Positions 12,259 to 61,423 of a stretch of 64,000 nt of DNA are shown here, one piece after another. This DNA is from Novakomyces olei. Lineage: Eukaryota. Numbering within the stretch: position 1 is the stretch's first letter; each line of letters starts with the position of its first letter. Both the position numbers and the translations under genes were made by a program. The notes under the pieces were generated by a model. That model did no database searches, was not told the DNA's origin, and saw only the letters and a program-made list of their open reading frames with translations. The stretch is taken from positions 992,001 through 1,056,000 of the forward strand of contig JADEYG010000012.1 of the NCBI GenBank assembly GCA_016906335.1, written 5' to 3'.

Positions 12259-13519
12259 CTAAGGACCCAAAGTAGAACTGGTTCGTTGCTCCATTGCCTT
12301 GAGAACGTGCTTTGGAAAAGTACGGCCTACGTCACGTTTAATCGCCTTTTCATATGAGCAGGGCTGTTCCAGTAGAGTGCGGTACTGCTGTTCCAAACCG
12401 TGCCCAGGCGAAGCACTGGCAAGCTGCCACATTACTTCGCGTAGGCAAGCAGGAATCCCGCCTTGAATAGCACGCAAAAGGTCAGCCGTACGATTGGCCG
12501 CCATTTCTTCGTAATTTTGCACAATTTGGTCCCACAAATCTGTCGTCAAAACAAGAGGAAAGATAGGAAATGGAAAGTTTAAAATTAATTAAAATAAAAA
12601 AAAAATAAAAATGAAAGAAAGATCAAAAACAAAATATCAGAATACCACATTAATGTCAATGAAAAATAAAGTTAAGAGCACATACCCCAATCTGTCAATG
12701 TGTCTGCGTTAGTGGCCTTAATCTGTTGAAATCGGCTGTACAATGCCTCTGCCACACTAACTTTACTGTCTCCAATGGCAAGAGAATTAAGCTTTAGTGA
12801 CTCGGCATGGCTGGCTAGTAATTGCGTATTATTTGCATACATATAGCTACCTCCACTTTCCTGGGAACTTGATCGGCTCAGTCGTTTTTGCGTTGTTTTC
12901 GGGGACCTCAGCCAAGCGAATGCTCGGTAATTAGTTCCTGGTGAGACTGCTGTTGATCGCGGCGGTAGATTTGGTCGCGTTGTGGCACGATCAAAGTTCC
13001 GTACAGATCCTCTGTCAGATCTCTCTGACCGATTCACGAGGGGAGGCTCTTTATTTTCTGACTCGAAGCCTGATTCTTGTTCCACGGCTTTATTGAATTC
13101 GTCATCTTGTCCAGTATTTGCATCGTTCTTTCGTCCATTGTCTGATTGTTGGGCCACGTCAACGGGCGGCTTGTCATTCTGTGGAACGCGTTGGCTATGC
13201 AACGCGTTTGTTTGCTCTTTATTCGTTTCATGTCCCGATTCATTCGTGGACTCGGCCGTCTCTTCCAAAACTGCAGGCTCCAAGTCTGTGCCTGGTACTG
13301 TATCAGACTGCCGTTCACTTGACTCTTCAGCCGCAGTAGAATGGGGCTGCGCAGTCGGCGTTTCGGACACGGTCTCGCCTCGCTCTTCCCTCGCGTTCTC
13401 AAAAACGTCCTCGTCATTGTCAGGAGTGCCAGAAAGAGCAATCTAAAATTTCGCAATCAGTATATAATAAAAGGTGAGTGCATTACATCAGTTTCTGACA
13501 TTGACGTGCTCTGTTCCAT
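12259..13519 (-). CDS. Gyp5-like TBC/Rab-GAP protein truncated inside the TBC domain (~356 aa). Exons 13519-13487, 13442-12686, 12539-12259
   Basis: Acidic disordered N-terminus, then DWDLWDQIVQNY...IQGGIPACLREVMWQ...YEKAIKRDVGRTFPKH (TBC start with the IxxDxxR finger). Stop 15 codons later with no GYxQG motif. Confidence 0.75.
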
Positions 13520-18852: not shown

Positions 18853-21852
18853 CTAAACACTAGCAAAGACTTGTTCCTGGTGCTTGTCAAGGGCCAATAG
18901 CATTTTCAACGGCGGTAAAAGCAGCTGCCTTCGTTCTTTTGGACTCGATAAAAACTGAACAATCACGTTTTTTACATATTCCCTGTCAAGAACACGAGGC
19001 GGTGACTGCGATCGCCTTACACTTTCTTGCTCGCGCGCTCTTTCGAAACTTGATCGCGATGAGGTCTGAGATGACATTCTTCTGTGCCTTTCACGTTCTT
19101 CGACCGCCGCTTTGAATTGCTTTGAATTAGTGACTAATCAAAAAAAAAAAAAAAAAAAAACAAACAAACAAACAAACAAACAAACAAACAGGGAATATAA
19201 CGAAAAGATAAATGACAAGCGAATATCGAAAACAGCCTCCACAAGGACAGAAACTTTAAAACAAATGAAACTGGAAAGGCCTTTAGCATCCTACCTGCAA
19301 AGATCGCTGAAGTCGCGCATTCTCCTCTTCAAGAGAAAGCTTTTTTGCCAATATGTCTTGCTGCTCTGATTCTGTGGTTTTAAGCTGGGCCTGTGCGGCA
19401 GTCTATTGGTCATTAGCATTAATTAAAAGGACATGGGATGCATAAAACAAGTCCAATTGAACATTTAAAAATAAATAATAAACATCAAAAATTAACGCAC
19501 CAAAGTCTCGGAAAGAGAACTCAAAGCCTCGCCAACTTCCCGTTCCTGCTGCCGACTATTTTCAGCGTCTGCCTTTGCGTAAACAAGCTCCTGCTTCAAA
19601 CGAGCCAATTCTCTCGTTTGCTGCTCTTCTGCGGACAAAAGTGCGTTATACTGATTTTGAGCCGTTGTTAATTCATTTTTTACTTGTTGAATTTCTCGTT
19701 CCCGCTGCCGCGTGACCAGTTCATACTGGTCTGAAAGCCTTTCGTTTTCAGCCGTTAATTTTCGCATTTCTTCTTTGGAATCCTCGAGAGCCGCGTCGTG
19801 CTCTTGTTGACGCGCTAACTTTTGCCGTAATAATTCTGTTTCTTTAGCGTTTTCTGTCAGTTTTTGTAGCTCTTTAAGCTCTTCCGACAGGGAATCTGCG
19901 CGTTCCCTGGCCTCACGTAGCTGATGAGCCTGTTCAGTGTTTTGCTGTTGCAGAGTTTCCATAAAAGACTCGGCCGATTGCCGTTCAGTCTGTGCTACCT
20001 GTAGTCGGTCTTGCATTTCGGCCAGATTCGACTCCACTTTCTTCTTTTGACTTTCCAGCATCTTGGCTTCTAATCGCAATCGATTGACCTCCCGCTCAAC
20101 TCTGGCAGTATGATCTTGGCAGGATCTAAACTGTGCCGCTGTTTGCTGTAAAGCTTGTTCCGTATCATGTACTTGGCGCTTTAGAAGCATTTCCCTCTCT
20201 TGCGATTTTGATGCGCTCTTTTTCTCCAGCTTTGCTGCCTCTGCTGCGCTCTTCCTCAAACCGTCGATGCGAACTTTTAATTCGGAATTTTCCTGGGCCA
20301 AAGTATCAAGTTTAGACTGCAAGTCGAGCTTGTCCGCTTCTACGGCTTTTAGTGAACTTTCCAAGCTTGCTGTAAAATCTTGGCCAGCTTTCAGTTTGGC
20401 CGTCAAATCTTGAAACTCTGATTCAAGCTGCGCTATCCGTAACGCGTCTGCTGCCAAACGTTTTGCCCCTGCAGCATTCGACTCGTTTAACGTCTCTGCA
20501 TCTTTACTTTCTCGCTTTTGCTCTCCTTCTTTATCACCACTTGCCCTGTCGCTTTCTTGTGCCGCTGCCTTTGCCCGTTCAAGTTCAGCAGTAAGCTCTT
20601 GCCGTTCTACTTTTAGGGACTTTATTTCATCTTTGGCCTCTACAAGTTCATTACCAAGATCGCGTATCATCTCGCGCAAATGCTCTACATCTTCCCCGTT
20701 CTTTTCCAGGTCTTGTAACTTTCTACGGCTCCTCTCGTACTGCTCACTGAGCAGGGAAATGTGGTCTTGTAGCTGTTTAATAGACGCCTGTTCCTGCCGA
20801 TACGTTGTATCACCAGCAGCCGGAGACGGGGCCGCCGATGTGGACTCTGCATCGGCATCTTCAGTCTCCGCTCCGTCTTCCTCCACGAGTTTAGCCGCCT
20901 TTTTCTTTTTCTTTTGCTTTCTCCTCTTTTTCGCGCTCGCACTCAGACTCGCTAGTTCACCAGCAACTTGTCCCACTGCTGTTTCGCAAGATGGCTGGTG
21001 TACAATTTGTGGGGTACTATTAGACTCGACCCCACTTTCCTCCTGCGCATGCTTGACCAGACTGGACTCGGATTGTTCCGTTTCTCTTGCCAGCAAAAGC
21101 TGACTTTGTTCAGACTCTAGCGTTTCAACTGCCCTATCCAGCTCGTCTACCTTCTCCTTCAAGCTAGCGTTTTCCCCTTGTAAAAGGGCATTTTGCTCTC
21201 GTCCAGCCTGGACTGCAAGATCACTATCCACTTTCTCTTGTGCTCTAGCTCTCCGTTCCTCAGCCAGATCGCGCTGAGCCTTTTGAAACTCAGCGACAGC
21301 CAACTCGTTTCCTTTACGCAGATTCTCCAGATATTCTCGGAACCCGGAAAGCTCGGCCACACTTGCCACTGGCGTGTTTTCATGCAGAAATCTATCAAAC
21401 GCAGCCCGTTGCTTATGATCCTCAAGCAGACGACGGTACGCTTGCTGTAACGCGGGATACCGCTTCTCGAACTTTGCCAGCTTTGTCAATTTGCGCCGAA
21501 CGAATTCCGGAGTCAACTCTGTCGCCGGTCTCGGACCATGCAGAGCCGGCTCACTATCGGCGCCACCTTCCTGCCGCTCTGTGGGCAAGATAGGCTCAAC
21601 GTTAGGGTTTTCTTGGGGCTTCTCACGGTGCTCGGCCGTCTTTTCCTGTACCGGTTTCGGCTCTGCTTCCTCCTCGTCTTCACTAACATCTCCATCGTCA
21701 ACGGCAAATTCGGTGGCAGTTTTGAGCCGCGTCGGTGATTGAGGCACATTATCTGCCTCGTCGCCAACGATTGCTCCTGACGATGCCGTCGCGGGACTTC
21801 GACGAGCGTTTGCAATTGACGAGTTTATTTGATCTCGAAATCGGCCAAACAT
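18853..21852 (-). CDS. IMH1: Coiled-coil golgin with C-terminal GRIP domain (Imh1-like). Exons 21852-19501, 19402-19295, 19119-18853
   Basis: Long E/K/Q-rich heptad region. C-terminal DREYVKNVIVQFL...LLPPLKMLL GRIP signature. Phe-containing N-terminus MFGRFR. Confidence 0.8.
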
Positions 21853-22674
21853 AACGCTATTGTGCTCGCCAGAATCGAGTTGCCAATACGACCTGAAAGT
21901 TGATCAAGCAAACTTTTGTTTGAGACTCATACAAATACGGATTTTGGTCAGAGCAATACTCTAAAGGCTATTCATCGCTCGCCATCGGGGCAGAGCGCCG
22001 AGGATTGTACCGACGTGCCGAAGCGACTGCAGTTTAATGTATGAATAATACTGGAATAAAATAATAATGGAATAAATATTAAATATATTCCCCAGTGCGC
22101 TTGTCAAGTCGTAATTTATTATTATAATTTTGTTATTAGTGAACAATATTCAAAACTGTAATATTGACGGCTATAATTAATTAATTAATTAATTATTTTT
22201 TCAAAGTTTCTATTCTTTGTTGACGCTTTAAATTCCTAGTTGATCTTTAAAAGTGTTTACAATTCGAATCTGTTAAAAGGTCATTTATATTATTACATTA
22301 TGCAAAAGCTTGCACGACTCGCCGCACTATCTAGCGGTGGTCGTTCAAACTCAGCCAGTCATCACGGGTCATCATGCTATCACAAAGCAATAGTTTTGGT
22401 AAAACTTGTAGAGGTTTGAAAAAAAAAAAAAAGTAAATAGGTAATAAGCGACAAATAAAGCAGCAACATCAAATTACTGAAATCGTTGATCAACTGGGTG
22501 CTCCAGTGAAAGAAAACCCCTACTGCAGACCAAATCACAATAAAAAGAAAAGAAAATAAAATAAAATAAAAGGAAATAAAAGGAAATAAAATAAAATAAA
22601 ATGAACCAGATATACATAAATGTACAAAGCAAACCACCAAATCAAAGAATGCTCATTGCACAAATCAAACGCAA

Positions 22675-27043: not shown

Positions 27044-29857
27044 TCAGCTCTGGCGCTGAAGCTGGACGACTGTGCTATTATAATCGCCCAGTAAACTATA
27101 TTGCAGTCCGTAATTCATAAGAGTCGATCCTGTATACGCCTGGCCGCCGTCAACGGTGTACGAGGCCGACGGATCCAAGCCCTGCAAGCGGATACGCGGA
27201 ACGCTATTGTCCACATTAGCACGCAGCTGGTAGTAGAAGAGCACGGCCTGTGAGGCGTCGGGAGAGACAAAAAGAACGGCAGGCCAATTAGATTCTTCAG
27301 GCAGACTGAGCCTGTACAAATCTCCATTGAGAATTAGAGGGCTAATGGACTCTGCCAGGGCAATCAGGCCAGGCAATTCCACTCGTTCATCGGCCGACAA
27401 TTCTTCAGGGTTAAGCTCGAGTCCAAAGGAGCCGCCCATCATAGCCACGTGGCCACGGAACTGGATAGAGATATTTCGGCCCGTCTGTTGATTCGGGATG
27501 GCAGAGACATGGGCTCCCATAGCACTTGGCGGGTAGACCAATGACGTACCGAGCTGAATAGCAATGCGCTCAGCAGCGTCCGTATCATCAGAGGTCCAGA
27601 CTTGTGGGAAGTACTGCAAGATTCCAGGGTCAAAGCGGCCACCGCCAGAAGCACAGCCTTCCCACAGCACGTTGGGGTAACGAGCAGTCAGATTACTAAA
27701 GACGTGGTAGATTCCGAGCATATACTCGTGGTCAGTGCTGGGCGAGGGCATCTCGTGGCTTCCACGGTTATGGTCCCATTTAACATAAGTGATGTTGCCA
27801 CTGTCGAGGATACTGCTGACAGAGTCGATAATAAACTCTTGCACTTGCGGAAGAGCGACATTAAGGACAAGCTGGTTACGGCGGAGTGTGTGCGGGTACG
27901 ACCCGGCCTGCAGAACCCAGTCAGGGTGTTCGTGGTAGAGCGTAGAGTTAGGGTTAACCATCTCGGGCTCCATCCAGATTCCAAACCGCAGGTGCGTTGA
28001 AGAATTACTGGCAGTAAGGGCACTTACGTTACTCGCCAAGGGACCAAGTCCATTGGGGAATTTGGCACGATTAGCCTGCCAGTCTCCGAGTCCTGCAGTG
28101 TCGTTCAGTCGTGGGTATTCGTTGCCAAACCAGCCATCATCCACAACCAGCAGTTTCACTCCTAAAGCTGCTGACTCCTGGGCCAGACGGTAGACACTGC
28201 TCTCGTTGATATTGAAGCTCAAGCCTTCCCAACTGTTGAGCAAAGCAGGTCGGTCACTAGTGGCAAATCTGCTAGTGATCAAGTGCTCACGGTACAGCCG
28301 GTGGAAGAGCCGGGACATGCCTCCGATACCGTTGGCCGAGTACACAGAGACACACTCTGGTGACGTCAGAGTGCTGCCGGGAGCAAGATTCCACGATAAT
28401 TGCTCCGGGTTGAGGCCCACAAGAGCTCGCGTGAAACCCTGAGAGCCCTTCTCCACTTGCACAGCAAAGGAGCCAGTGTAAACCAGAGAAAATCCCCATG
28501 CCTCGCCCTGCGCCTCGTTGGTTGAGGGCGAAACAATGGAAAGGAAGGGATTGTGCAAGTGGGAGGAGAAGCCCGTGCTGCTCGAGAATCTGGATAGTGA
28601 GTATAAATTGCGCAAATAAACATTGAGCAATTAAACATTGAGCAATTAAACATTGAGCAAATAAGCATTGAGCAAATAAACATTGGGCAATTAAACATTG
28701 AGCAAATAAACATTGAGCAAATAAACATTGAGCAAATAAACATTGAGCAAATAAACATTGAGCAAATAAACATTGAGCAAGTAAAAAACAGAATCTACAA
28801 GAGTAGAATACAAAATGTACGGCCTTACCCCTGTGATCCATAGATGATTGAAGACCTCTGCGGATGGGCCTCACGCGCCCAATCGCCATGTAGGCTGATC
28901 ATATCGAGATCGGTGTAGGGAAAATCAAAACTCAAGCTGGCGAGTGCCTCGACGGTGATATTTCCTTGGCCCTGGTTGGTGACACTGACGCTGCGTACAA
29001 TAGCATCGTATTGAGGAAAGATAGAATACGACAAATTTGCCGCCACTGAGCTGTACTGGTCCCACAGACTAATGATGAGGGTAGTGACGTCACGAGCCTC
29101 GCCATAGGTGGCAGGCAGCCCAGGCAGATCAGGTTTGCCTTCGACGATATGGTACGATTGGTAAGCGAATTGAGAGACAGTGTAGCCCTCTGATTGCCGA
29201 ATACGCACTGCAGGCGTACGGAAATCTCCGCGACCTTGGTCGGGAAACTCACGGCGAATACGGCCGGGCAGGCCTACCCACCCATTGACAGTCGGAGGCA
29301 CTTCCTCGGGGACACTGCCCGTCAGGGGACCACCATAGTGGTCGCTGATGAGATCGCCCGTACTCGGATCAACGTGGAAGTGGTACGACAAATGCACTCC
29401 GTGCAATGCAAAGCTCGTGCCATTGACAACCACAGCTGCAATAGTTAGAATATGATTAGGAGATTGTGCATTCAGATACTATGAGCACCCGATTAATTGG
29501 ACGAAAATTGTAAGAAAATTGTACGGAAATCGAACGAAAATTGAACTAAAATTGAACTAAAAATGTACGAAAAAAATTGCAAGGATCAATAGATCGGCAA
29601 GGGCAGGCGACGGACAAACATGATCAAGGACAGAATAGGCGGATAGAAGCCCGCGGAGTCAAGCATGCATTGCAAACAAAAGCATCTAAATCTCATCCAC
29701 TGCCAACCCCCAAGCAGTTGTCCAAAGCCAAGGTAAAAGTCTCTAAACGCCCAAATACAGTCATACCGCTCCCATTGTATCCCTGAGCAGAGACGCAAGT
29801 CAGCCCCGTCAGCAGGGTGACTACTGCGAGCGCTAAGCGCCGAACAAGACCAGTCAT
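27044..29857 (-). CDS. Secreted GH36 alpha-galactosidase (AglC type). Exons 29857-29767, 29435-28829, 28589-27044
   Basis: Signal peptide [81 protein letters not shown] (nucleophile), [19 protein letters not shown] (acid/base). Confidence 0.95.
28612..28780. repeat. 15-bp minisatellite GCAAATAAACATTGA x11 inside GH36 intron 2
   Basis: Eleven near-identical head-to-tail units with no spacers. Explains the spurious CLFAQ/MFICS ORFs. Confidence 0.95.
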
Positions 29858-38810: not shown

Positions 38811-40091
38811 CTAAATAAACTTCATAGCACGAGCCTCCACAAGCATTTGACCCTGTTCGTCTGTAGGGACAATGAGAACACGGCATACAGAGTCGGAGTG
38901 AGAAATATCACAGATACCGGTATCCTTCTTACGTGGAGACTTGTTGAGTTCTTTGTCAATAGCGACACCGACCACACTCAATTCGTGGCTTACACGTTCA
39001 CGCACAAGAGCAGCTCGCTCACCGAGTCCACCAGAAAATGTAATTGCATCAATTTTGTTAGCTCCGCCTAGCTTGAACCAATAACTGCCGACAAAGTTTA
39101 TAATACGATCAACAAGAATGTCAATTGCTAATTGGCATAATTTGTCTCCAGATTCTGCTCGCTTTGTAATGTCACCAAAATCAGTGGTTCCAGTAAGCGA
39201 TTTCCAGCCTGATTGTTTGTTTAGAATCTCTTCCGCCTCTGTTATATGCACTTCCTTTGTAGAAGAAGCCGACATACGAGAAGCGTTGCTGGTCATGTGG
39301 AAAATAAGACTGGGGTCCACTCCACCCGATCGAGTGGCACCAGGAAGACCCTCCAAAGGTGTCAGTCCCATAGAAGTATCAAACGATTTCCCGTTTTTAA
39401 TAGCGCACACTGAAGCACCAGATCCAAGGTGGAGTGCAATGATGTTTAGCTGCGAAGGATCCTTCTTGAAAAAAGCCGAAGTCTGATCCACGATAGAGGC
39501 GTAAGAAAGACCATGAAACCCGTACTTTCGCAGGTAACGGGTCCAGGTGCGTTTGGGCTCAACGGGATAAGTGTAGATGTGTCGCGGTATAGATCGAAGA
39601 TGGAAGCAAGTATCGAAGAACGCATAACTTTTAGTGCGCGGAAGTACGGCCTGGCACGCATTCACAATAGCGAGTGCTCCGTGATTATGTAAAGGTGCAA
39701 GATCGGAAAGTTCATCCAGCTTTGAGTAAGTGTCCTTTGTGATCTCTATTGGCTTGGGAAAAGTACCGCCATGGACAACTCGATGGAAAGCAAAAGCAAT
39801 CGACTCTCGCTTGTTAAGGAGCCGGCTCTTATGGGTCACATGGTGCACAAAGTATTCAAATGCTTCAATTGGGCCCTTAATTTTATCACTGTCCAAATCC
39901 TCATCGACATTAGACTCGCGCTCATGGGTTTCGGGATTGTAAATTACTGAAGTGTAATGCTTCTTTGATGCCGTAAGTCCCTCGACAGAAGATTGCGCCA
40001 ATACGGTATGCCCATCTAACGTAAAGACTGTGATTTTAACGGACGAGCTTCCAGCATTGATTGCTAATAAAGCCTTTTGTTCCTGAGCCAT
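38811..40091 (-). CDS. ACK: Acetate kinase, intronless
   Basis: AINAGSSSVK, HRVVHGG, LAPLHN, FDTCFH, RKYGFHGLSY, HLGSGASVCAI, DTSMGLTPLEGL, TRSG..DP, FSGGLGE, PTDE. Confidence 0.96.
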   Translation of the reverse strand: MAQEQKALLAINAGSSSVKITVFTLDGHTVLAQSSVEGLTASKKHYTSVIYNPETHERESNVDEDLDSDKIKGPIEAFEYFVHHVTHKSRLLNKRESIAFAFHRVVHGGTFPKPIEITKDTYSKLDELSDLAPLHNHGALAIVNACQAVLPRTKSYAFFDTCFHLRSIPRHIYTYPVEPKRTWTRYLRKYGFHGLSYASIVDQTSAFFKKDPSQLNIIALHLGSGASVCAIKNGKSFDTSMGLTPLEGLPGATRSGGVDPSLIFHMTSNASRMSASSTKEVHITEAEEILNKQSGWKSLTGTTDFGDITKRAESGDKLCQLAIDILVDRIINFVGSYWFKLGGANKIDAITFSGGLGERAALVRERVSHELSVVGVAIDKELNKSPRKKDTGICDISHSDSVCRVLIVPTDEQGQMLVEARAMKFI

Positions 40092-40524
40092 TCTTCCCTA
40101 AAGCCTATGGTAAACTTTGGCGAATGCTGGGCAAGCGAAGGTACGGGATCTGCAGCCGTGTAAATAACACGTGTCTTTATCGTCTGATCGGAGATTAGTA
40201 TATAGGAAGCGTTGGAACTGTATATTGTAATTATGACCGATTGCATGTTGCATTACATATACCATTCTACAATTATATCAAGGGAAGGAATAACAAGAAG
40301 ACATGGATCGTATCGTCGGGAGTATGACACAAATTTCTTGTCGCCATTGACACGTTACGCTATGGGCGGTATACTAAACAAAAAGTACTACACAAAAGTA
40401 GCACTGCACAAAAAGTATACTAAGCAGCAATAATAATAGCTTATTCTTATTATTGTAACATTTATTTTATAATAAATTATATATAAGCAATAATGCTACA
40501 ACAAGCACCAAGGGTACAAGTAAT

Positions 40525-47014: not shown

Positions 47015-48096
47015 CTAAGCTCGTGAGTTGACGATTTGGTGGACCAAAATATCTGAAGCCCCAGCATGCTCTAATTTGTCCATAACAAGAGCAGCTTCCT
47101 TGCGAAGTACCATAGCGCTGACAGCTACCCAATTCCCTTCTTCAAGCGGGCTCACAGTCGGAGCCCGGCGCCCTGGTGTGATATGCGAACAAGCCTTGAG
47201 CTGCTCCCGAGGGCAGTTGTAGCAGAGCAATAGATATTTCTGTGCAGTCACGTAACCACGAACGCGTCGAGTTATTAGCGGAATCATATCAGGTCGACGT
47301 GACTGCTTTGATCTGATAAGGACAGCCGTTGTTTCCATCAGAGTATCAATAGGGCGTAGACCAGCGGCCTTCATAGTTTCTCCAGACTCCACGAGGTCAA
47401 CAATTCCATCGGCCAGGCCAAGTGCACAAGCAGCTTCAACAGAACCAGAGACAAACTTTACTTTGGTAGGCGTAGCGACTGCATTGCCTTTGGCTGCCAA
47501 ATCTGCTTCCAATTTGCGGAAGAAACTGCCGACAAAGTCTTCAAACGAAGTGACCACGCGTTTCCCTATTAATTCATTCACGCTTTTAATGCTGCTCGCC
47601 TCTGGAACTTGAGCTTGCAATTTGCAAGAGCCAAAGCCCAGATCTAAAAGCTCTTCAATTTCAAGATCCGGGCTGGTTAATTTTGCTTCAACTACCGTGT
47701 CCTGCCCCGTGATACCGAGATCGACATTGCCCTCGGCCACGAACCTTGGAATATCCGCAGCAGGGAGGAAGACAAGGGCAATAGGCAGATTGTGTACGAG
47801 CGCAATATCTAATCGGCTGTGGCGGTGGAATTTTATATCGGACCCAGACAGTACCTCCAAGCACGACTGGTGCAGTCGTCCCTCTATAGCGTTTAGTAGA
47901 ACGAAAAAGGTACTCTAAAAGATTTAAATTGCGAAATAAAACAACGGCTGAAACAAGAGGCAGCAGAATACGAATAAACGCCCAGAAACAGAGGTTTGCA
48001 AATGAAATAAAGCAGTAAAAAAAGTAGCACAGGGAATTGCGTACTTTTGGGAATCGCAAATAGTAGGCGATTGTCGAGATGGTTGACGAGATCCAT
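47015..48096 (-). CDS. HIS1: ATP phosphoribosyltransferase. Exons 48096-48045, 47883-47015
   Basis: MDLVNHLDNRLLFAIPK-KGRL, FLPAADIPRFV, DLGITGQD, GSVEAACALGLADGIVDLVESGETM, ITPGRRAPTVS. Confidence 0.97.
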
Positions 48097-48348
48097 CGCT
48101 CGAGATTCAACACGTCTACAAAGATTATTATTATCAGATAATAATGGTTTTGATAAAGAAAAGTTTTGTGCTCGCAAACTCTCTACGCAAACTCTATTAG
48201 CAAACTCTATCGTAGCTTGTTATCGCCAGACAAGCAATTTTATTGTTTTACCAATTTTATGGTTTTACCAATTTTATTGTTGACCAATTATTTGATAATA
48301 AATTTTTTGTTTAGCCAATTTATCGTCGAGTCTGACATTAATAGGTAC

Positions 48349-48367
48349 ACGGGTACCCGTCCGCTTA
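48349..48367. repeat. ACGGGTACCCGTCCGCTTA, copy 2 of the dispersed palindromic element
   Basis: 19/19 identical to 10406-10424. Lies in the divergent HIS1/UTP22 intergenic region. Confidence 0.85.
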
Positions 48368-48522
48368 TTCAATATATATCACTTAGACAATGCGTAGACA
48401 TAAAATCATTGATGATATTGGTAATAATAAAATTATCGAGCAGCGAGCGACATATCAGAAATAGATAAAATAAAATATTAGAAAAAAGACCCACCCGCTC
48501 GAGGAGCAATGCATCTTTTGCC

Positions 48523-50708
48523 ATGAAGTGGCACGAGTACGAGTACGATGCGGCTTTTAGGTAAGTGCAAGACGAAATTTTAGCATTGTATAAACCTGAT
48601 CTGACCACGCGATTTGGATAGATGCGCTACTGATCGGCCGGTGGATACGGCTGCCGTTGAAGCAGTAGTTAAACGTGCTTTGGGGAAGCGTGTGACTCGT
48701 GTCGCGGTTGTGCAGAGCACAGACCGTCAAGTATGCATTGGACTGCTTTTAGATGCCACAGCGGCCGCAAGTATTGTGGATCTTGGCCCAAATTCTACGG
48801 AAACAGATGGCATTAAAGAATACAAAAAGTTTTGGGGCGGCCGATCAGAGCTGCGTCGGTTTCGCAACGGCGAGATTCGGGAAAGTGTGGTTTGGGAAAC
48901 TGTTAGGGGCGATCACGTAGTGCAAGATATTGTTCGCTACATTCTGCGCGTACATTTCCCCCAATTGAAGATCGAAACGGTATGGGGCTTTGCGTACAGG
49001 GCCTTTTTACAGCAGCCAACGAGCGGTACACATGGAGATTTTGCGTCTGTCATGGCGGGCTTTGACGAAATTGCCAAAATTATTCGCAATGTCCGTGATC
49101 TCCCGCTAAGCATTGCTGGTGTAACCGGAACGGGATCGGCATTAAGGTACACTAGTGTTATTATTCCCGGAGACAGGCCATCGTCTCCAGCGGATGCGGT
49201 AGTGCACTTTGAGTCCTCACCCCGTTGGCCACGGGACTTGCGGGCCCTGCAAAGAGTAAAGACATCCCTGCTCATTGAACTGGGAAGAGCAATTGAGCGA
49301 AATCCTGAGATTAGAGCAGTTACAGTTGGGCGAGAAAATGAGCATAATGATGTCGCAAATGCAACTTTTCTACAAGTTGAATCTGCCTCTGCAGCTCCAC
49401 TATGTATACGGTTCCGCCTGTGCGTGGAGCAAGAGCGAATTTTGCTTCAGCAAGCGCTGCGTGGTCGTCGGAGTCAGTTGACCCGGGCGGAAAGGAACTT
49501 GGCCCGTGAAGCTTTAGCCGTATGGGAAGAGCATTTTGAAGGTAGAGTACGGCATGCACGTGCCTTGCAAAGACTGTGTCAGCACTTCCCCGCCTTATCC
49601 CCGAGTGTAAGGCTGGTCAAACAGTTTTTTGCTCATCAGCTCATGTCCCGTGCCCTCACTGAGGAAGCAGTGGAATTATTAGTGGCTAAAGTCTTTGTTG
49701 ACGGACCGAGTTCATGCTCTCCACCGGGCAGTATGGCCTCCGGGTTTGTACGGGCCATACGCAGTATTGCTCAATGGGACTGGCCACACAGTGCAATGTT
49801 TGTTCCCTTACAGGAGGCAGATAACGATGGAGGAGTCGTAGAGGATTATAATAGCAATAGCGACAATGAAGGACAGGAAGAGGAAGCCAAACTTGGGTCT
49901 TGTGTATATAGAGCAGAAGAAAAGGAAGCACAGCACAGGTTTCGTGCAGTGCGGCGGCAGGATCCTTACATGGAACATTTCACAATGTTAATAGCCAGCC
50001 CTCTTGATCCTTCAGGGCTCTATTGGACAGAGCGTTGCCGACGTCCTTCAAAGATGGTTGCTAATCGTATTACACAGCTGTGCCGTTCATCACGGGAGGT
50101 TGCCGTAGTGAATCCAGAGGTGGGTCTCGCAAACATGAGAACAGTGATATAACCTGGTTCTATGCTAACCTGCCAGGTCTGCTTCCGAGCCGATGTGTCC
50201 CCATATGATCTTGTTATCCACTTGAATCCACGGGAAGACCCGTATTCCTGGCAAAGCGAGCTTGTGTCAATTGGGGACAAGGATACAGCAATGACGACGG
50301 GCAAACGCAAGTTTCGAAACCTTGAATTAGCAGCTTCTACTCAGGGAGCCGGTTATGATCCGATGGGCAGTTTTGTGCAAGATCTAGTAGTAAGTGTCTA
50401 TGCTTGTTATTGATTTGTCGGTTTTTCCAATACTCATAATTAAGGCTTGCTACGGTGCCGCAATGACCTTCTTCCATAATTCTCAGGGCGGCAACGTTGT
50501 TGGAGTCGTGTGCCAGCCACGGATTCTCTCTCCACACAAATTTCGACCGGGCCTACCTTACTCGACAGAGCCTTACAAAGACCCAACTCGTGATGATGGA
50601 GAAGAGCAGCTTGTTCGCGCAAATATGAAGGCAATGCTGGCCGAGATTGAACGTATCGGTGGCAGTCTCGTCACCCGCATTGATATCCAGAATTCTGCCT
50701 TGTTTTAG
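48523..50708 (+). CDS. UTP22: Utp22/Nrap (NOL6), C-terminal portion only, 670 aa. Exons 48523-48560, 48622-50119, 50177-50389, 50445-50708
   Basis: KRALGKRV, VDLGP..KFWGGRSELRRFRNGEIRESVVW, LPLSI..SALRYTS, FESSPRWPRDL, FPALSPSVRLVKQFF, EEAVELLVA, YDLVIHL, AMLAEIERIGGSLV. Exon lengths sum to 2013 nt. Confidence 0.9.
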
Positions 50709-51656: not shown

Positions 51657-53671
51657 GAGACCGTTGTGGGGTATTTTTATTATTAAATGGTGATTTCTCG
51701 AAATACATGTACTGAGAAATACTATATATCGAAATAGATATTGAGAAATATTATATATTGAGAAATAGAAATAGATATTGTATAGGAATATTGTATATTA
51801 TTGTAAACGAAAACTGCTCCTTGTTGCGTAGAGAAGAGTAAATATTATTGAGCAAAAGACGTTGAACTGAACTGTTGAATTGAAAAAGCGTTTGGAGAGA
51901 TGAGATTTATTCAAGTGTTGATCTATTTATACCTGATATCTATAATCTTAGTTTGTAGTCACCCATATCTTGGTTTATCTCTAACAAAAGATTTGTGTCT
52001 GCACTACACTTGCTGATTGTGCACGAAATAGGATTGACTTGATTGTATTCGCCAGTTGACGGTCCATAACGACCGTGTCTACAAACAGCGATCACGCGTT
52101 TGCGCCGTGTTTTTGGTGAGCGGCTGCAGCATTGCTTGTGCAGGATTTGAGAGCGCGCCCGGCAATTCTACTTTGCTCGTTTACACTGCACTCAAAAAAC
52201 TGCCTATTATAATTTGTTGCGCCAACTGCCGTTTCCGCTCAATTCTCTCGAATTAAACAATGGCCTAATACAGGTTGACTGTGATTTACGCAGTGTTTCC
52301 AGCTTGTGCCACTGCACTATCCCACACGAGTCCACAAGTCCAGGCTGGACCCATTAAATGTGCGCAGCGTCATACGCATCCAGGCCGGGAATCTGGGGCA
52401 ATAGACTATTGTAAGACTATCGTAGACTATCGTAATTTTAACGTGGACCGCTCGGACAAACACGCACGCTAATGGCACGTTTTTGCATTATTACGTAATC
52501 TAGATGCTTCCATGCCAGCCGTTGATTACATTACATAATTAATCCATGGCGTTTCTAAAATTTTTGGGCAATAAATCCAGTTGAATGCCGTCTCCATATT
52601 ATTTCCCTTTCTCACTAATTCCGTATTCGATCCTTCTATTCTGGTACTCGTCAATTCCATGGGAACAATACTGGAAAGAATTATTTCATGCGGGCCAGTG
52701 AGGAATGAACGGCTCTTGGCAGCAGTATTATGTACGAGCGTGGCGTATGGCATAAAAGTAATGTATAAAGTGGTAATGCATAAAGTCAGGCTCGTGCAGG
52801 TCAGGGAATAAATGTTTTTCTCCCGTTGTAGATAATCCAGCATACTCTCGTCGAAACACCGACGACCTGTGAGAGTGCGATTCAATGCAACAAGAATTGT
52901 AGCGACAAACGTGGCCGATAGCCAGTCGCCTTCATCCCTTGCATTCCACCCTCCTGATCCGATCGGTGCGAGCAGATTGCTCACGTATGGTAGAACTCAA
53001 TTTATTAATCGCAGCAATCGCGGATATTAAATATGCAAGACTGCTGTTTGCTTGTATGGAGATTGGCCAGTGTAGAAGGAAATAAATTATATCATACTCA
53101 ATAAAACAGCGCTAATTAATCGAAAGGGCAAGAAAATGTAGTGAAAAATAAAACCGCGAAAATTTCAGTGTCCGTTTGAGCTGCGCACCGGCGACACAGA
53201 TATGGAATATTTCTCCCTCGCGCTATACTTTTCCTTTAACTCGCCCTCTCCTATATTTACTTTGGTGGATTATAGCCGCTGTCTACTGTTGCCAAGCACC
53301 CCCGTTCCTTATTCCTGCGTACGTTAACGAGCTATAAATATACTAAAAATATACACACACACACAGGCCATAAACACTAAACTTGGTATCGCATAGTAAA
53401 GACAGATTAACGTGTATACATTTATACACAGAATATATTCTTTATATACACAAAACATATATTTATATATACACAAAGCATACATATATCTATATAAATT
53501 TGTATACATGTATACATACATCTATGTATAAAACAAATACTGCCAATAGGTGCAGGCACAATTTAATAAAAATCACGATACATTGTACACTGTACACAAC
53601 CGCAGTCGATCTACCAGGTAGATGCTCGTTTCTCTCACATAATCAAAACCAAAGCTCTGCTTGCTGAGGCA

Positions 53672-56146
53672 ATGGATCCCTTTGAGGATCCGTCTGAAGC
53701 CTCGGCGGCTTCGTCGTCGACTGGAAACGGCCCGTTTACACACTCTCACCATTCGAATATACGGAACGACTCGCCTTCAGGGCGGCGTCGATCCTCCTCG
53801 AACGGTGTAAGCTTCTCCAGCTCCTCTGGATCGCTGCCTCTGCAGGCAGCAAATGCGGCTCAGCTTCCAAACACTCGGCAAAGCAGCAGCGGACTCTCAC
53901 AGGCAGTGAACAGCGGCCAAGCCTCGGCGGCCGAGTACTCTCAGCGGAAGCGTGTCAGCACTGGATCAAAGTCTATTCCCACTTTCTCGCCCACTTCCTT
54001 CTCTCCAATCCTCTCCTCCTCTCCACGCGCGTCCCCACGGCTCAACAGGGGGTCTTCTCCGGGCGCGTTCCACTCCACTGTCCCGGCTGGCTCACGCAGC
54101 CGCGTCGAGTCGGGCTCATACAATAACAATAACGGCAGTAGCAGTGGGAACAATGGAGCCGGTAGTTCGAGCGGCGGGTACGGAGAGCTGCACGCTTCTC
54201 ACTCGGAAAACTCGTTTCGAAACTCGTTTGGTGGAGAGTTTGATCGGTACCCGCGGTCGGCGTCGGGAACGGCTCCGTTTACTCAGCCGTCTTCGAGAGC
54301 AAACTCTCTACGCTTAACCGGTCCAGGACAGAGGGACGCTTCGTTTGACTCGGCCCACTCGCTGCTACTAGCTACAAATAATAACAACAATAACAATAAC
54401 AATTATAATAATAATTATAATAATAATATTAATAATATTAATAACGGCAATGGCAATGGCAATGGCAATGGCAATGGCAATGGCAATGGCAATGGCAATG
54501 GCAATGGCAATGGCAATGGCAAGGGCAACAGGCTCGTTTCCAGCGGTGGCGGTGATGAAAAAGCCGGATTAATGCAAAATATTTATGGAGTGCCCAATCT
54601 GTCCGATACCGGAGAACTGACGGTGGATGTGAACGAGAAAGAGGAGGACGATGCCCTCCACGATCCTCGAGCAGACTACCCCTACCGGGACAGAGAGAGC
54701 CGGGTGGGCTGGCGTGCTGTTGCCAATATTGGCGTACTGGCTATCCTTTTGGCCGGAGCAATGACGCTCTTTGTGGTCTGGCCGGCTCTCACGTTTACGG
54801 GCAACACTGCCGCTGATGTTACCTACAGAGACCGCAATAGACCAAACCCAAACGCTACCCTTGCAGACCACGCTCTGACTCACCATGAAGCTGACAACTT
54901 TCGAGGTCTTCGCACCAATTTGATTGATCCGGATACGCCGCAAAGTGCGTATACTCGGCAATCCATTAACGGAGGCAAAACGTACAATCTTGTGTTCTCT
55001 GACGAGTTTGAAAAAGAAGGCCGGTCCTTTTATGCTGGGGATGATCCGTACTGGGAGGCAGTGGATCTGTGGTACGGAGCAACTGAAGATTTGGAGTGGT
55101 ACACTCCTGATGCCGTTACTACTGGCAATGGCACTTTACAGATATCCATTGATGCTTTCCGTAACCACAACCTCGATTTCCGGTCGGGCATGGTCCAGTC
55201 GTGGAACAAGATGTGCTTTACCGGTGGCATTATAGAGATATCGGCCAGCCTGCCTGGCAGAGGCGATGTCCTGGGGCTCTGGCCTGGTCTATGGACCCTC
55301 GGCAACCTGGCCCGGCCGGGGTACAGGGGCACATCAGAGGGTCTTTGGCCGTACGCTTACGACTCGTGCGATGCCGGAATCACACCGAACCAGTCTTCTC
55401 CCGATGGAGTGTCCCATCTGCCAGGGCAGCGTCTGCCCTCGTGTACGTGTGAGGGCGAGGACCACCCGAGCCCTGGCCGGGGCCGTGGAGCACCCGAGAT
55501 TGATATTATAGAGGGAACCGTGGCCGGCTATAGCCCGGAGGGCAACAAGACAGGTGTGGCCTCCCAATCCTTCCAACTGGCTCCAATGGATCCTTTTTGG
55601 TACGTTAATTACGACTATGTTGCCATCTACAATCAATCGATTACGCAGATGAACACTTGGACGGGAGGACCGTTGCAGCAAGCAGCCTCGGGAGCCACTA
55701 CGCTAAACACACGCTGGTACGATGGCCAAGAGTACCAAAAGTACAGTTTTGATTACCAGCCGGGAGGCGCTAACGGTAGCGTTACCTGGTACGTTGGTGA
55801 TGATCCAGCTTGGACACTTGCGGGGGCAGCAATGGGACCGAATGGTAATGTAGGACAGCGTATAGTCTCCCCAGAACCAATGAGTGTCATCATGAATGTT
55901 GGCATATCGACTTCATGGGTCTACATTGACTTTCCCTCGCTCGAGTTTCCCTCAACCATGTACATCGACTACGTACGGATCTACCAGGACCCGGACAGAG
56001 TGAGCGTTACCTGCGATCCGCCCGATTACCCGACGTACGATTACATCCAGCAGCATCCTTTGGTCTACCAAAACCCGAATTATACGCAGTTTGAGGATGC
56101 TGGGTACACGTGGCCAAGGAATAGTTTAATGCACGGTTGCTCTTGA
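53672..56146 (+). CDS. KRE6: Beta-1,6-glucan synthesis protein Kre6/Skn1 (GH16-like, type II membrane protein)
   Basis: EEDDALHDP, a single TM segment, LIDPDTP, LVFSDEF, DLEWYTPDA, SGMVQSWNKMCF, WPGLWTLGNLARPGY, RGAPEIDIIE, IDYVRIYQ. Confidence 0.95.
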   Translation: MDPFEDPSEASAASSSTGNGPFTHSHHSNIRNDSPSGRRRSSSNGVSFSSSSGSLPLQAANAAQLPNTRQSSSGLSQAVNSGQASAAEYSQRKRVSTGSKSIPTFSPTSFSPILSSSPRASPRLNRGSSPGAFHSTVPAGSRSRVESGSYNNNNGSSSGNNGAGSSSGGYGELHASHSENSFRNSFGGEFDRYPRSASGTAPFTQPSSRANSLRLTGPGQRDASFDSAHSLLLATNNNNNNNNNYNNNYNNNINNINNGNGNGNGNGNGNGNGNGNGNGNGNGKGNRLVSSGGGDEKAGLMQNIYGVPNLSDTGELTVDVNEKEEDDALHDPRADYPYRDRESRVGWRAVANIGVLAILLAGAMTLFVVWPALTFTGNTAADVTYRDRNRPNPNATLADHALTHHEADNFRGLRTNLIDPDTPQSAYTRQSINGGKTYNLVFSDEFEKEGRSFYAGDDPYWEAVDLWYGATEDLEWYTPDAVTTGNGTLQISIDAFRNHNLDFRSGMVQSWNKMCFTGGIIEISASLPGRGDVLGLWPGLWTLGNLARPGYRGTSEGLWPYAYDSCDAGITPNQSSPDGVSHLPGQRLPSCTCEGEDHPSPGRGRGAPEIDIIEGTVAGYSPEGNKTGVASQSFQLAPMDPFWYVNYDYVAIYNQSITQMNTWTGGPLQQAASGATTLNTRWYDGQEYQKYSFDYQPGGANGSVTWYVGDDPAWTLAGAAMGPNGNVGQRIVSPEPMSVIMNVGISTSWVYIDFPSLEFPSTMYIDYVRIYQDPDRVSVTCDPPDYPTYDYIQQHPLVYQNPNYTQFEDAGYTWPRNSLMHGCS
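54376..54520 (+). repeat. Coding (AAY)n tract followed by (GGCAAT) x~12, giving poly-Asn and (Gly-Asn)n
   Basis: Direct observation within the KRE6 cytosolic N-terminus. Confidence 0.9.
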
Positions 56147-58793: not shown

Positions 58794-61423
58794 ATGGCTT
58801 CGAAAAGCGCATTGCCCAAACGTATGCTACAAACCTGACCTTTGTTCTTTGTATAGCTTTTTTGTTTTTTATATTGCTTTGCGTATTAGAGCGCTTATGT
58901 CTGTTTTTATGATCCCTCACGGTACTGCCTCCGCTTTTCCAGAGACTGTCCAATTCCCACCTCAATTTTTATTCTGATACTGACTGCTGTAGCTAGCGAC
59001 TTGAACGAGACGTAATCACGATTGCATATTAAAGGATACTGCATTACTAACCTGCAACTTCCAGATGGAACTACCTCGAAGCCGGTGTTACGCAAGTCGT
59101 TGAACACTTGGACGAAGGATTGAGCTATCAAAAGTATATGGAACTTTATACGTACGTAATCGATTGGGAATGAAATTTATTCATGTCTAACTGGTTCAGC
59201 GTGATCTACAACTATTGCACTCACAGTCGGAGCGGCGTCGATGCTGGAGGCGGAGGGCTCAGTAAAGGTGCGAATCTTATGGGCGGAGACTTGTATCAGT
59301 TGCTGGTAAAGTATTTCACCACACACTTGGCAAAGCTACGCAAGACAGTGGACCGCAACACGGACGAAGCCTTTGTCGTAGCCTACGATCAACAGTGGGA
59401 CCGTTTTACTACGGGGGCAACTTTTGTCCATCATCTTTTCAAGTACCTTAATCGGCACTGGGTCAAGCATGAGATTGAAGAGGGCAAATACTACATTCAT
59501 GATGTCTATACTCTAGCACTGCTGTGTTGGAAAACAGAACTTTTTCTACCCCTGAGCCAAAAGTTACAGGACTCGCTCTTTCGCATGATTGAACGCCAAC
59601 GTGACGGCGAAGTAATTCAAAACTCCCGGATCAAGGCCGCTGTTGATTCAATGGTGGCGTTGGGCATTGATGACTCGGCCGACCGGGGAATCAGTTCTTC
59701 AACTGCTTCCCAGGCTCATACTTCTGCTGCTGCTAATGGAGGAGATATCGGTGTCTATAAACAGCACTTTGAGCAGGGCTTTATTGCAGAAACAAAGGCT
59801 TATTACAAAAAGCAGTCGGAGCTGTTCCTGGCAGATAATACGCTAACTGAATACATGAAACGGGCAGAGCAGCGGCTGGCAGAAGAAGAAGCTCGGGTCA
59901 TATTATACCTGCATGAGTCTACCAGGACAACGTTGATGAAAACCTGTGAGCAAGTACTTATTGCTGACAACAAAGTCATATTGCAAGACCTTTTCACTCC
60001 CTTACTCGTCGGGGAAAAGTATGAGGATTTAGCCCGGAATTATGCGCTTTTGAGCTGTATTCCCAAGGATCTGGATATTTTGCGCAAACAGTTTGAAGAG
60101 CATGTGAAAGCTGTGGGCAATATTGCAGTAGAGAAGTGTGTGGGCGATACTGAAGGCCAGGACGCAACTGCAGTTGATCCAAAACTGTACGTTGATGCGT
60201 TATTGCAAGTTCATCACAAGTTTAATGGCCTTGTAAGCATGGCTTTCCAATCTGATGCGGGGTTTGCAAAGGCTCTAGACAACGCTTGTAGAGAATTTGT
60301 AAACAGAAACAAGGCGTGCCGCCAATCCTCAACGAAATCGCCCGATCTTTTGGCTCGCCGCTGTGATGCTCTATTGAAGCGAAACGCTCGTACCGCGGAG
60401 CCGGATGACTTGGAGGAATCGCTTAATAACGTTATTGTTATTTTCAAGTATATAGAGGACAAGGATGTATTTCAAAAATACTATGCTAAGGCACTGTCTA
60501 AACGGTTGGTTAATGCTACATCAGCGTCCGATGATGCTGAGACTAGCATGATTGCAAAGCTGAAAGAAATCTGTGGCTTTGAGTATACAAACAAGTTGCA
60601 ACGAATGTTCCAGGATATTGGAATCTCAAAGGATTTGAATGACGGATTTCGAACAGCACTGGACACGGGTGCTGGAGGTGGTAAAAAATACAAGTACGAT
60701 TTTAATATCCTCGTCTTGGCGACTTCTTTTTGGCCTCTGCAATCTTCGAGTTCTCCGTTCAATTTGCCACAGGAGCTGATGGCTCCAGTCGAAGAGTTTC
60801 AAAAGTTTTATGATCGTCGGCACTCGGGCCGCAAATTGAATTGGCTGATGCATCAGAGCAAAGGCGAGCTTAAAGTCAATTTTGCAAAGGCTTCAAGGGT
60901 CCCGTATACATTGCAGCTTTCTACTTATCAAATGGCAATTTTACTGGCATTTAACGAGTCGCTCGTGCAAACGTACGCCGACTTGTCCAAGCTTACCGGC
61001 CTCAATGATGTCATGCTGGCGGGCTCGTTAGAGCCGCTTGTTAAATCGCGCTTGCTTCTGGAACAAAAGTCTCCACAAATGGAACAGACGCGTTACGAAC
61101 TGAATCTGGAATTCAAGTCGAAAAAGATTCGGATGAATCTGAATGCACCGATTAAAGTCGAGCAAAAACAGGAGATTGATGAAACGAGCAAGACGATAGA
61201 AGAGGACCGTAAACTACTGGTACAATCAGCGATTGTACGAATCATGAAGGCGCGTAAAACCCTGAAGCACGTGGCTCTCGTGAACGAAACGATAAATCAG
61301 ATAAAGTCGCGATTTGCGCCAAAGATTCAAGACATCAAGCGGTCTATTGACATTCTTATTGAAAAGGAATACCTGGAACGTGTACCAAACAGTAAAGAAG
61401 CAGCATATTCATACCTTGCGTAG
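58794..61423 (+). CDS. CUL1: Cullin-1 (Cdc53/Pcu1). Exons 58794-58821, 58993-59011, 59065-59150, 59200-61423
   Basis: DLNETWNYLEAGV..YMELYT, YLNRHWVK, ALDNACREFVNRN, FKYIEDKDVFQKYY, CGFEYTNKLQRMFQD, HSGRKLNWL, neddylation motif IVRIMKARK, IEKEYLER. Confidence 0.96.

Follow-up and report, generated by a model that had tools for sequence, protein, structure and literature searches.

Utp22/NOL6 is universal and essential in eukaryotes. Typical named full-length members of the family comprise 1033–1236 amino acids, whereas a gene of the fungus Novakomyces olei encodes a protein of this family with only 670, without D1, D2, and the start of D3. How can a gene for an essential protein begin near the middle of that protein? 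The gene, referred to here as UTP22c (the UTP22 C-part gene), lies in a 64,000-nucleotide (nt) stretch of contig JADEYG010000012.1 (positions 992,001 to 1,056,000). This stretch, hereafter the window, provides all coordinates given below, and the genomic part of the study was confined to it. The sequence and a structural model suggest that UTP22c is a genuine gene, maintained by selection, that encodes the C-terminal 58% of Utp22, and it looks functional. Our preferred explanation, still a tentative one, is that Utp22 of this organism is made of two pieces, the N-terminal module being encoded by a separate gene elsewhere.

UTP22c Is an Intact Spliced Gene

The exons of UTP22c were chosen from a list of 40 open exon combinations, among which the model with the best splice signals was a four-exon gene at 48523–50708 of the forward strand. 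Its frame is open across 2013 coding bases. The first-pass annotation of this DNA had described a spliced open reading frame of 670 amino acids starting at gccATG 48523, an in-frame TAA at 48466–48468, and the divergent start of HIS1 approximately 430 base pairs (bp) away. All its statements on the sequence were borne out by direct reading and by the listing of exon combinations, and the distance to HIS1 was measured as 426 bp.

All three introns are short (55–61 nt) and have kept the standard signals. In intron 1, the sequence CTGAC sits 16 nt 5′ of the acceptor AG. The removal of this intron is needed, because the unspliced conserved frame offers its first in-frame Met only after ~150 residues, past the most conserved segment. 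Nine in-phase ATG-to-GT combinations were found in 48097–48600. Only the one at 48523–48560 has a consensus donor, and the others were rejected as alternative start exons.

The peptide encoded by exon 1 was compared with the family as well. A MAFFT alignment placed its YEYDAAFR opposite the family motif [FY]D...R. Alignment with a profile of the preceding family segment gave the peptide −1.5 bits, a score also reached by 928 of 2000 shuffles. The local alignment of the full family profile to spliced UTP22c begins only at residue 23. As the score was at chance level and the profile alignment started behind exon 1, the similarity was rejected as evidence for homology of this exon to the Utp22 family.

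The Product Is a Partial Member of the Utp22/NOL6 Family

The Pfam scan of UTP22c revealed four of the Nrap domains. Nrap_D3 was matched in part (98.4 bits with a cut-off of 23.1, profile positions 41–159 of 160, E 6.3e-28), followed by Nrap_D4 (142.9 bits with a cut-off of 21.8, positions 14–203 of 203, E 1.1e-41) and Nrap_D5 (132.2 bits with a cut-off of 27, positions 1–142 of 162, E 1.9e-38). Nrap_D6 was matched with 29.6 bits in exon 3 and 66.9 bits in exon 4 (cut-off 22.3). Neither Nrap/D1 (PF03813) nor Nrap_D2 had a Pfam match in the gene.

For the measurement of the missing part, a family profile of 1148 positions was made from 79 full-length Utp22/NOL6 homologues. Its positions 507–1143 align to residues 23–667 of UTP22c. 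The missing share thus amounts to ~44% of the profile (506 of 1148 positions) and includes the first 40 profile positions of D3. The lack of the N-terminal domains in the gene, for which a share of ~40% had been proposed, therefore stands with a somewhat larger extent. The large size assumed for full-length Utp22 also agreed with the data (79 of the 86 longer homologues found have at least 1000 amino acids). Since PF03813 and Nrap_D2 are absent from both the gene and the 64-kb window, we count the product as a partial family member. Judged by its sequence, it is either an orthologue or a copy of what the C-terminal 56% of the profile covers, and not a complete Utp22.

Comparison with the solved Utp22 chains gave E-values from 6.7e-53 to 1e-32. 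The best of these was obtained with Utp22 of C. thermophilum (residues 530–970 of 1171), and yeast Utp22 (residues 615–1069 of 1237) matched at about 2.5e-49. The segment KRALGKRV...FWG..SELRRF, which had been placed near the middle of Utp22, indeed corresponds to residues from about 615 to 660 of 1237 in yeast and begins at about residue 530 of 1171 in C. thermophilum. Like Utp22/NOL6 of S. cerevisiae (4M5D), C. thermophilum (6RXV), and human (7MQ8), UTP22c has the invariant segment FWG..ELRRF with its pair of arginines. R78 and R79 of exon 2 align with R560/R561 of 7suk_NH, which with an offset of 96 are R656/R657 of yeast 4m5d. Across 74 sequences, R78 does not vary, and the conservation of R79 is at least 90%. 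According to the report on the yeast crystal structure (PMC3794860), the R656/R657 double mutation or the deletion of D4 (630–667) impairs yeast growth.

An AlphaFold2 model of exon 2, obtained with an alignment of 74 sequences, had a mean predicted local distance difference test score (pLDDT) of 89.2 and a predicted template modelling score of 0.89. The retained D3/D4 part was confidently folded, with blocks of residues 11–100 at pLDDT 86–98. When the model was compared with known structures, the best 11 matches were all Utp22/NOL6 chains (TMq 0.70–0.79; yeast 4m5d_A, 0.78), indicating that exon 2 has the fold of Utp22 D3/D4 plus the head and neck of the C-half. The retained D3/D4 elements are one helix and three strands of D3, the whole of D4, and the closing D3 helix, behind which the entire C-half follows. 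In yeast, D6–D8 of the C-half bind Rrp7, which provides the link to the pre-ribosome (PMC3794860). The counterpart of this region is present in UTP22c.

The Break Maps to a Variable Body-Domain Loop

The structural report (PMC3794860) divides yeast Utp22 into an N-half (D1–D4, residues 81–689) and a C-half (D5–D8, residues 699–1237). D4 (residues 630–667) is inserted in the body domain D3. The two halves contact one another via D2, D3, and D6, and D2 together with D3 contributes to an interface of 1,621 square angstroms with D6 (PMC3794860).

The break is not between the two halves (689/699 in yeast); UTP22c starts ~110–120 residues ahead of this boundary. In an alignment with 15 homologues, its N-terminus lies in an unconserved stretch of variable length between the [FY]D-containing segment and a conserved helix. 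The break is thus assigned by alignment to a variable loop within the body domain of the N-half and not to a module boundary. If UTP22c is a partial duplicate, as considered below, exon 1 and the first residues of exon 2 could be the native loop with an internal Met used as the start, and no new exon would be required.

One may ask whether the 670-amino-acid protein might be the sole Utp22 of the organism, the head/neck module of the N-half having been dispensed with. The yeast data are compatible with this. In the structural report (PMC3794860), the sites that matter are D4, which is retained here, and, slightly, a patch of D2; the charge reversals in the conserved patch of D1 and the D204A mutation leave growth unaffected, and Rrp7, carrying the link to the pre-ribosome, binds the retained C-half. 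The lineage is also fast-evolving, as seen from its cullin-1. However, all named full-length fungal, animal, and plant Utp22/NOL6 proteins retrieved have all six Pfam Nrap domains, and even the named kinetoplastid entries without Pfam matches to the N-terminal domains are still 1220–1300 amino acids long. Without the interface of D2/D3 with D6, a large surface would lie open and the D3 sheet would not be complete.

Moreover, the short entries in the databases argue against such a loss, being fragments rather than natural short forms. The libraries contain many Utp22 entries of 526–899 amino acids, and those looked up were mostly predictions from contigs. One of them, P0095 (573 amino acids), shares its 90% cluster with a member of 1149 amino acids, and the N-termini of 77 short entries project to profile positions anywhere from −1 to 625. 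Because of these scattered N-termini and the clustering of P0095, the short entries were treated as fragments, and the existence of natural short forms of Utp22 in the databases was rejected. Taken with the structural considerations, a true loss of the N-terminal part is quite unlikely in our estimate.

The Retained Part Is under Constraint

Of the 55 columns with a conservation of at least 90% in 73 other sequences, UTP22c keeps 46. True orthologues of distant lineages gave 43/54 (mammal), 42/52 (oomycete), 45/53 (sea urchin), and 47/53 (Rhizopus), and UTP22c falls within their range. The misses in UTP22c are mostly conservative (F/Y, D/N, W/F). Its identity to the proteins of Pezizomycotina, Basidiomycota, and Rhizopus is 28–33%, and these groups share 27–33% with each other.

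Meanwhile, cullin-1 of the same organism is only 50–53% identical to that of other phyla, which share 54–63%, and so indicates a long branch. UTP22c is therefore not accelerated: cullin-1 exceeds the divergence usual between phyla, while the identity of UTP22c equals the norm. The cullin-1 gene itself (59174–61423) is a single exon of 749 codons; the value of 50–53% holds for every named fungal lineage retrieved, and one contig protein is 77% identical to it.

The codon usage of UTP22c resembles that of its neighbours (relative synonymous codon usage, r 0.59; neighbours, 0.35–0.67), and so does its composition. The cupin/JmjC entry of the codon-usage comparison, which was out of frame (24 stops), is disregarded. 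No stops, frameshifts, lost splice sites or introns, or loss of conserved residues marked it as a pseudogene. The view that the retained part is not a pseudogene is thus upheld by the open frame, the kept introns, the conserved columns, the normal divergence, and the confident fold.

It should be noted that this evidence excludes a long-standing unconstrained copy and does not extend to a recent one. UTP22c might be a partial duplicate: a full-length UTP22 would be present elsewhere, and a copy of its 3′ 2.2 kb, which arose fairly recently beside the HIS1 promoter and is either expressed or silent, would not provide the working Utp22 of the cell. A recent copy of a constrained gene would have the open frame, the intact introns, and the conserved residues seen here, and exon 1 with the first residues of exon 2 falls in a loop that is not conserved in the family. 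An unselected copy, however, soon gains stops, frameshifts, and splice losses, none of which occurred in the 2013 coding bases and the three introns. No scar of a repeat or mobile element was seen at the 5′ edge, where only short promoter repeats are present. In addition, a truncated protein still able to bind Rrp7 could do harm in the presence of the full-length form, to judge from PMC3794860. We regard a partial duplicate as unlikely.

The N-Terminal Module Is Absent from the Window

The window was searched for the missing module with two methods. In tblastn searches with 12 and then 6 full-length homologues, which included P0246, a member of the same cluster as the closest relative (39% identity), meaningful E-values were found only at 48614–50696, and all other matches in the window were scattered and had E-values of at least 0.23. 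An hmmsearch of the family profile with filters off against 1564 six-frame open reading frames of at least 25 amino acids retrieved only the three exon frames (E 2.8e-120, 5.5e-17, and 5.6e-07; the next best, 1.2), and profile positions 1–506 remained unmatched. These results rule out N-terminal exons in cis for 48 kb upstream and 13 kb downstream.

They also bear on the idea that N-terminal exons are joined to UTP22c from afar, by cis-splicing over a very long intron or by trans-splicing. Nothing was found in favour of such joining, and the coding sequence of the N-half is absent from both strands over the distances just given. The known introns are short, being 55–61 nt in UTP22c and about 160 nt in HIS1. 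Exon 1 also has its own ATG, with the in-frame TAA 55 nt upstream of it. Trans-splicing is the weakest option, because this ATG and the GTAAGT donor of exon 1 complete the frame locally. We know of no established mechanism of trans-splicing of protein-coding nuclear genes in fungi. Joining from a distance is thus highly improbable.

Protein libraries were searched in two length classes, and no near-identical protein was found in either. The nearest match, with 39% identity, belongs to a cluster with a full-length member of 1149 amino acids.

The Intergenic Region Shared with HIS1

The start of UTP22c faces HIS1. The HIS1 ATG is at 48096–48094, and its first exon and intron are intact. The intergenic DNA has a guanine–cytosine (GC) content of 0.33–0.37, compared with about 0.50 in the adjoining coding DNA, and is like the other intergenic stretches of the window. 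It contains three tandem 13-bp units of CGCAAACTCT at 48173–48211 and four CCAAT-containing repeats with a spacing of 17 bp at 48236–48321 (AATTTTATTGTTTTACCAATTT and its variants). CCAAT occurs 5 times in 526 bp around this region compared with 2.4 times per kb in the whole window. The CCAAT and CGCAAACTCT repeats may be shared promoter elements.

A chimeric join of HIS1 to the middle of a UTP22 gene within 48100–48520, the true gene being full-length, is an assembly artefact that the short tandem repeats of this region might invite. The repeats, however, are merely 13–22 nt long, and the window contains no N. The junction resembles an ordinary divergent promoter of 426 bp with the GC content given above, and HIS1 is complete on its own side. 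Furthermore, an in-phase ATG and a consensus donor stand where a start is needed, which is not expected from a random misjoin. We consider an assembly artefact improbable.

A Two-Piece Utp22 as the Favoured Explanation

Of the explanations considered, we favour the fission of UTP22 into two genes, although at less than even confidence. A full-length paralogue and a misassembly, which the first-pass annotation had named only as refutations, are counted here among the live alternatives. The reasons are the constraint at the level of an orthologue on a long branch, the position of the cut in a tolerant loop, and the persistence to be expected of a fixed split: a two-piece essential gene, once fixed, should last indefinitely, whereas an intact partial duplicate should be short-lived.

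In the proposed course of events, the ancestral UTP22 would have been cut where it encodes a variable loop on the surface of the body domain. The head/neck module of the N-terminus (Nrap D1–D2 and the first D3 strands) would have become a separate gene at another locus. UTP22c would be transcribed from the promoter region common to HIS1 and translated from the ATG at 48523, the 61-nt intron linking this start to the conserved frame. Its product would comprise the last portion of the body domain of the N-half, the D4 ‘tail’ with its pair of arginines, and the complete C-terminal module resembling a CCA enzyme. The two Utp22 polypeptides would then reassemble non-covalently.

Several points weigh against this explanation. 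All the evidence of constraint is equally compatible with a recent partial duplicate, and the splitting of an essential gene in one step needs both pieces to work at once. No gene for the N-terminal piece was found within the 64-kb window. When 1.84 billion representatives were scanned exhaustively with HMMER, 1333 matches were obtained, the best of which had only 39% identity. One would expect a clean split into modules at the boundary of the N-half and the C-half, whereas the break is interior to a domain both in Pfam and in the crystal structure. An out-of-frame ATG at 48509, which is 14 nt 5′ of the proposed start, opens an upstream open reading frame overlapping this start; it could reduce or regulate the translation of UTP22c and is relevant only if the transcript begins upstream of 48509. 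Finally, a search of 48097–48622 for PAC and RRPE, motifs of ribosome-biogenesis promoters that may not hold for this lineage, gave no exact match and one RRPE-like sequence, a result that is uninformative here.

The separation of UTP22 into two genes would have a counterpart in the class I (archaeal) CCA-adding enzyme, the homodimer of which is the proposed ancestor of the Utp22 halves (PMC3794860). A separate N-terminal module would restore two polypeptides with modules of the head-neck-body-tail type. The arrangement differs in that the cut is not intermodular, as a remnant of the body of the N-terminal module is fused together with the tail to the C-terminal module. A catalytic role is not to be expected, since Utp22 has degenerate catalytic residues (PMC3794860). 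Fungal gene fissions have been catalogued (PMC2557144), and they are alike in that the shorter gene covers a contiguous part of the ancestral gene; unlike them, UTP22c is known here from one piece. The literature searches returned no title or abstract on a split or a truncated form of Utp22.

Features of the Window

The features of the locus are collected in Table 1.

Table 1. UTP22c, HIS1, and the DNA between them (window coordinates)
Feature	Position	Strand	Evidence or remark
HIS1 (ATP phosphoribosyltransferase), two exons (48096–48045 and 47883–47015), 5′ end complete	47015–48096	−	HisG 1.9e-45, HisG_C 4e-27
Divergent HIS1–UTP22c intergenic region, 426 bp between start codons	48097–48522	.	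AT-rich, promoter-like
In-frame TAA closing the exon 1 frame on the 5′ side, 55 nt upstream of the ATG	48466–48468	+	Direct reading
Upstream open reading frame of five codons, ATG CAT CTT TTG CCA TGA, overlapping the UTP22c start as ATGA	48509–48526	+	Direct reading
UTP22c exon 1: ATG, 12 codons, and 2 bases; peptide MKWHEYEYDAAF, R split	48523–48560	+	Start context gccATGa
UTP22c intron 1, 61 nt: GTAAGT donor 48561, CTGAC 48601–48605, AG acceptor 48620–48621	48561–48621	+	
UTP22c exon 2: Nrap_D3 (partial), Nrap_D4, Nrap_D5; includes FWGGRSELRRF	48622–50119	+	Pfam, alignment, AlphaFold2
UTP22c intron 2, 57 nt: GTGGGT ... GCTAAC ... CAG; in-frame TAA 50150–50152 inside	50120–50176	+	
UTP22c exon 3: start of Nrap_D6 (profile 2–58 of 131)	50177–50389	+	Pfam E 8.8e-07
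UTP22c intron 3, 55 nt: GTAAGT ... TAAG	50390–50444	+	
UTP22c exon 4: remainder of Nrap_D6 (profile 61–131 of 131), stop TAG 50706–50708	50445–50708	+	Pfam E 2.6e-18

The window, 64 kb of a fungal chromosome, is free of gaps and has a GC content of 44.7%. Apart from UTP22c, it contains genes for a Tom1-like ligase, a class I tRNA synthetase, Brr6, a tyrosine phosphatase, a GH36 melibiase, Nic96, a bHLH protein, acetate kinase, RPS8, a SWIRM/Swi3-type protein, a cupin protein, HIS1, PGP phosphatase, KRE6/SKN1, and cullin-1. The organism seems to come from a lineage that is deep or evolves fast and that has hardly any sequenced relatives in the libraries.

The KRE6/SKN1-type gene (53570–56146) has a long N-terminal region of low complexity (poly-Asn and (Gly-Asn)n) before its conserved domain. 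The GH36 melibiase gene (27044–29478, reverse strand) is in two open frames, with GH36N profile positions 3–183 at 28825–29478 and 184–253 at 27044–28630; the split is presumably due to an intron (about 190 nt), a frameshift being the alternative. The acetate kinase gene is at 38811–40097 on the reverse strand (Pfam Acetate_kinase, E 3.5e-90). Within the fungi, this enzyme is known from some lineages only. Three open frames on the reverse strand, of 803 (19492–21903), 256 (12672–13442), and 183 codons (6617–7168), had no Pfam match at E ≤ 1e-5.

Implications for Utp22

If a full-length copy exists elsewhere, UTP22c is an ordinary partial duplicate. We put the chances at about even that, in a deep and fast-evolving lineage, the essential 90S factor Utp22 works as two separately encoded polypeptides, with the strands of the N-terminal piece completing the D3 sheet in trans, or that, without such a piece, the biogenesis of the small ribosomal subunit can do without the whole head/neck module of the N-half. 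If true, this would be one of the rare documented cases of fission among essential genes for ribosome biogenesis. It would also offer a ready-made dissection of the N-half, the function of which is poorly defined (in yeast, only D4 and the weak D2 patch have been implicated; PMC3794860). From a natural two-piece or N-truncated Utp22, one could learn which parts of this inactive double scaffold resembling CCA enzymes need covalent linkage, or need to be present at all.

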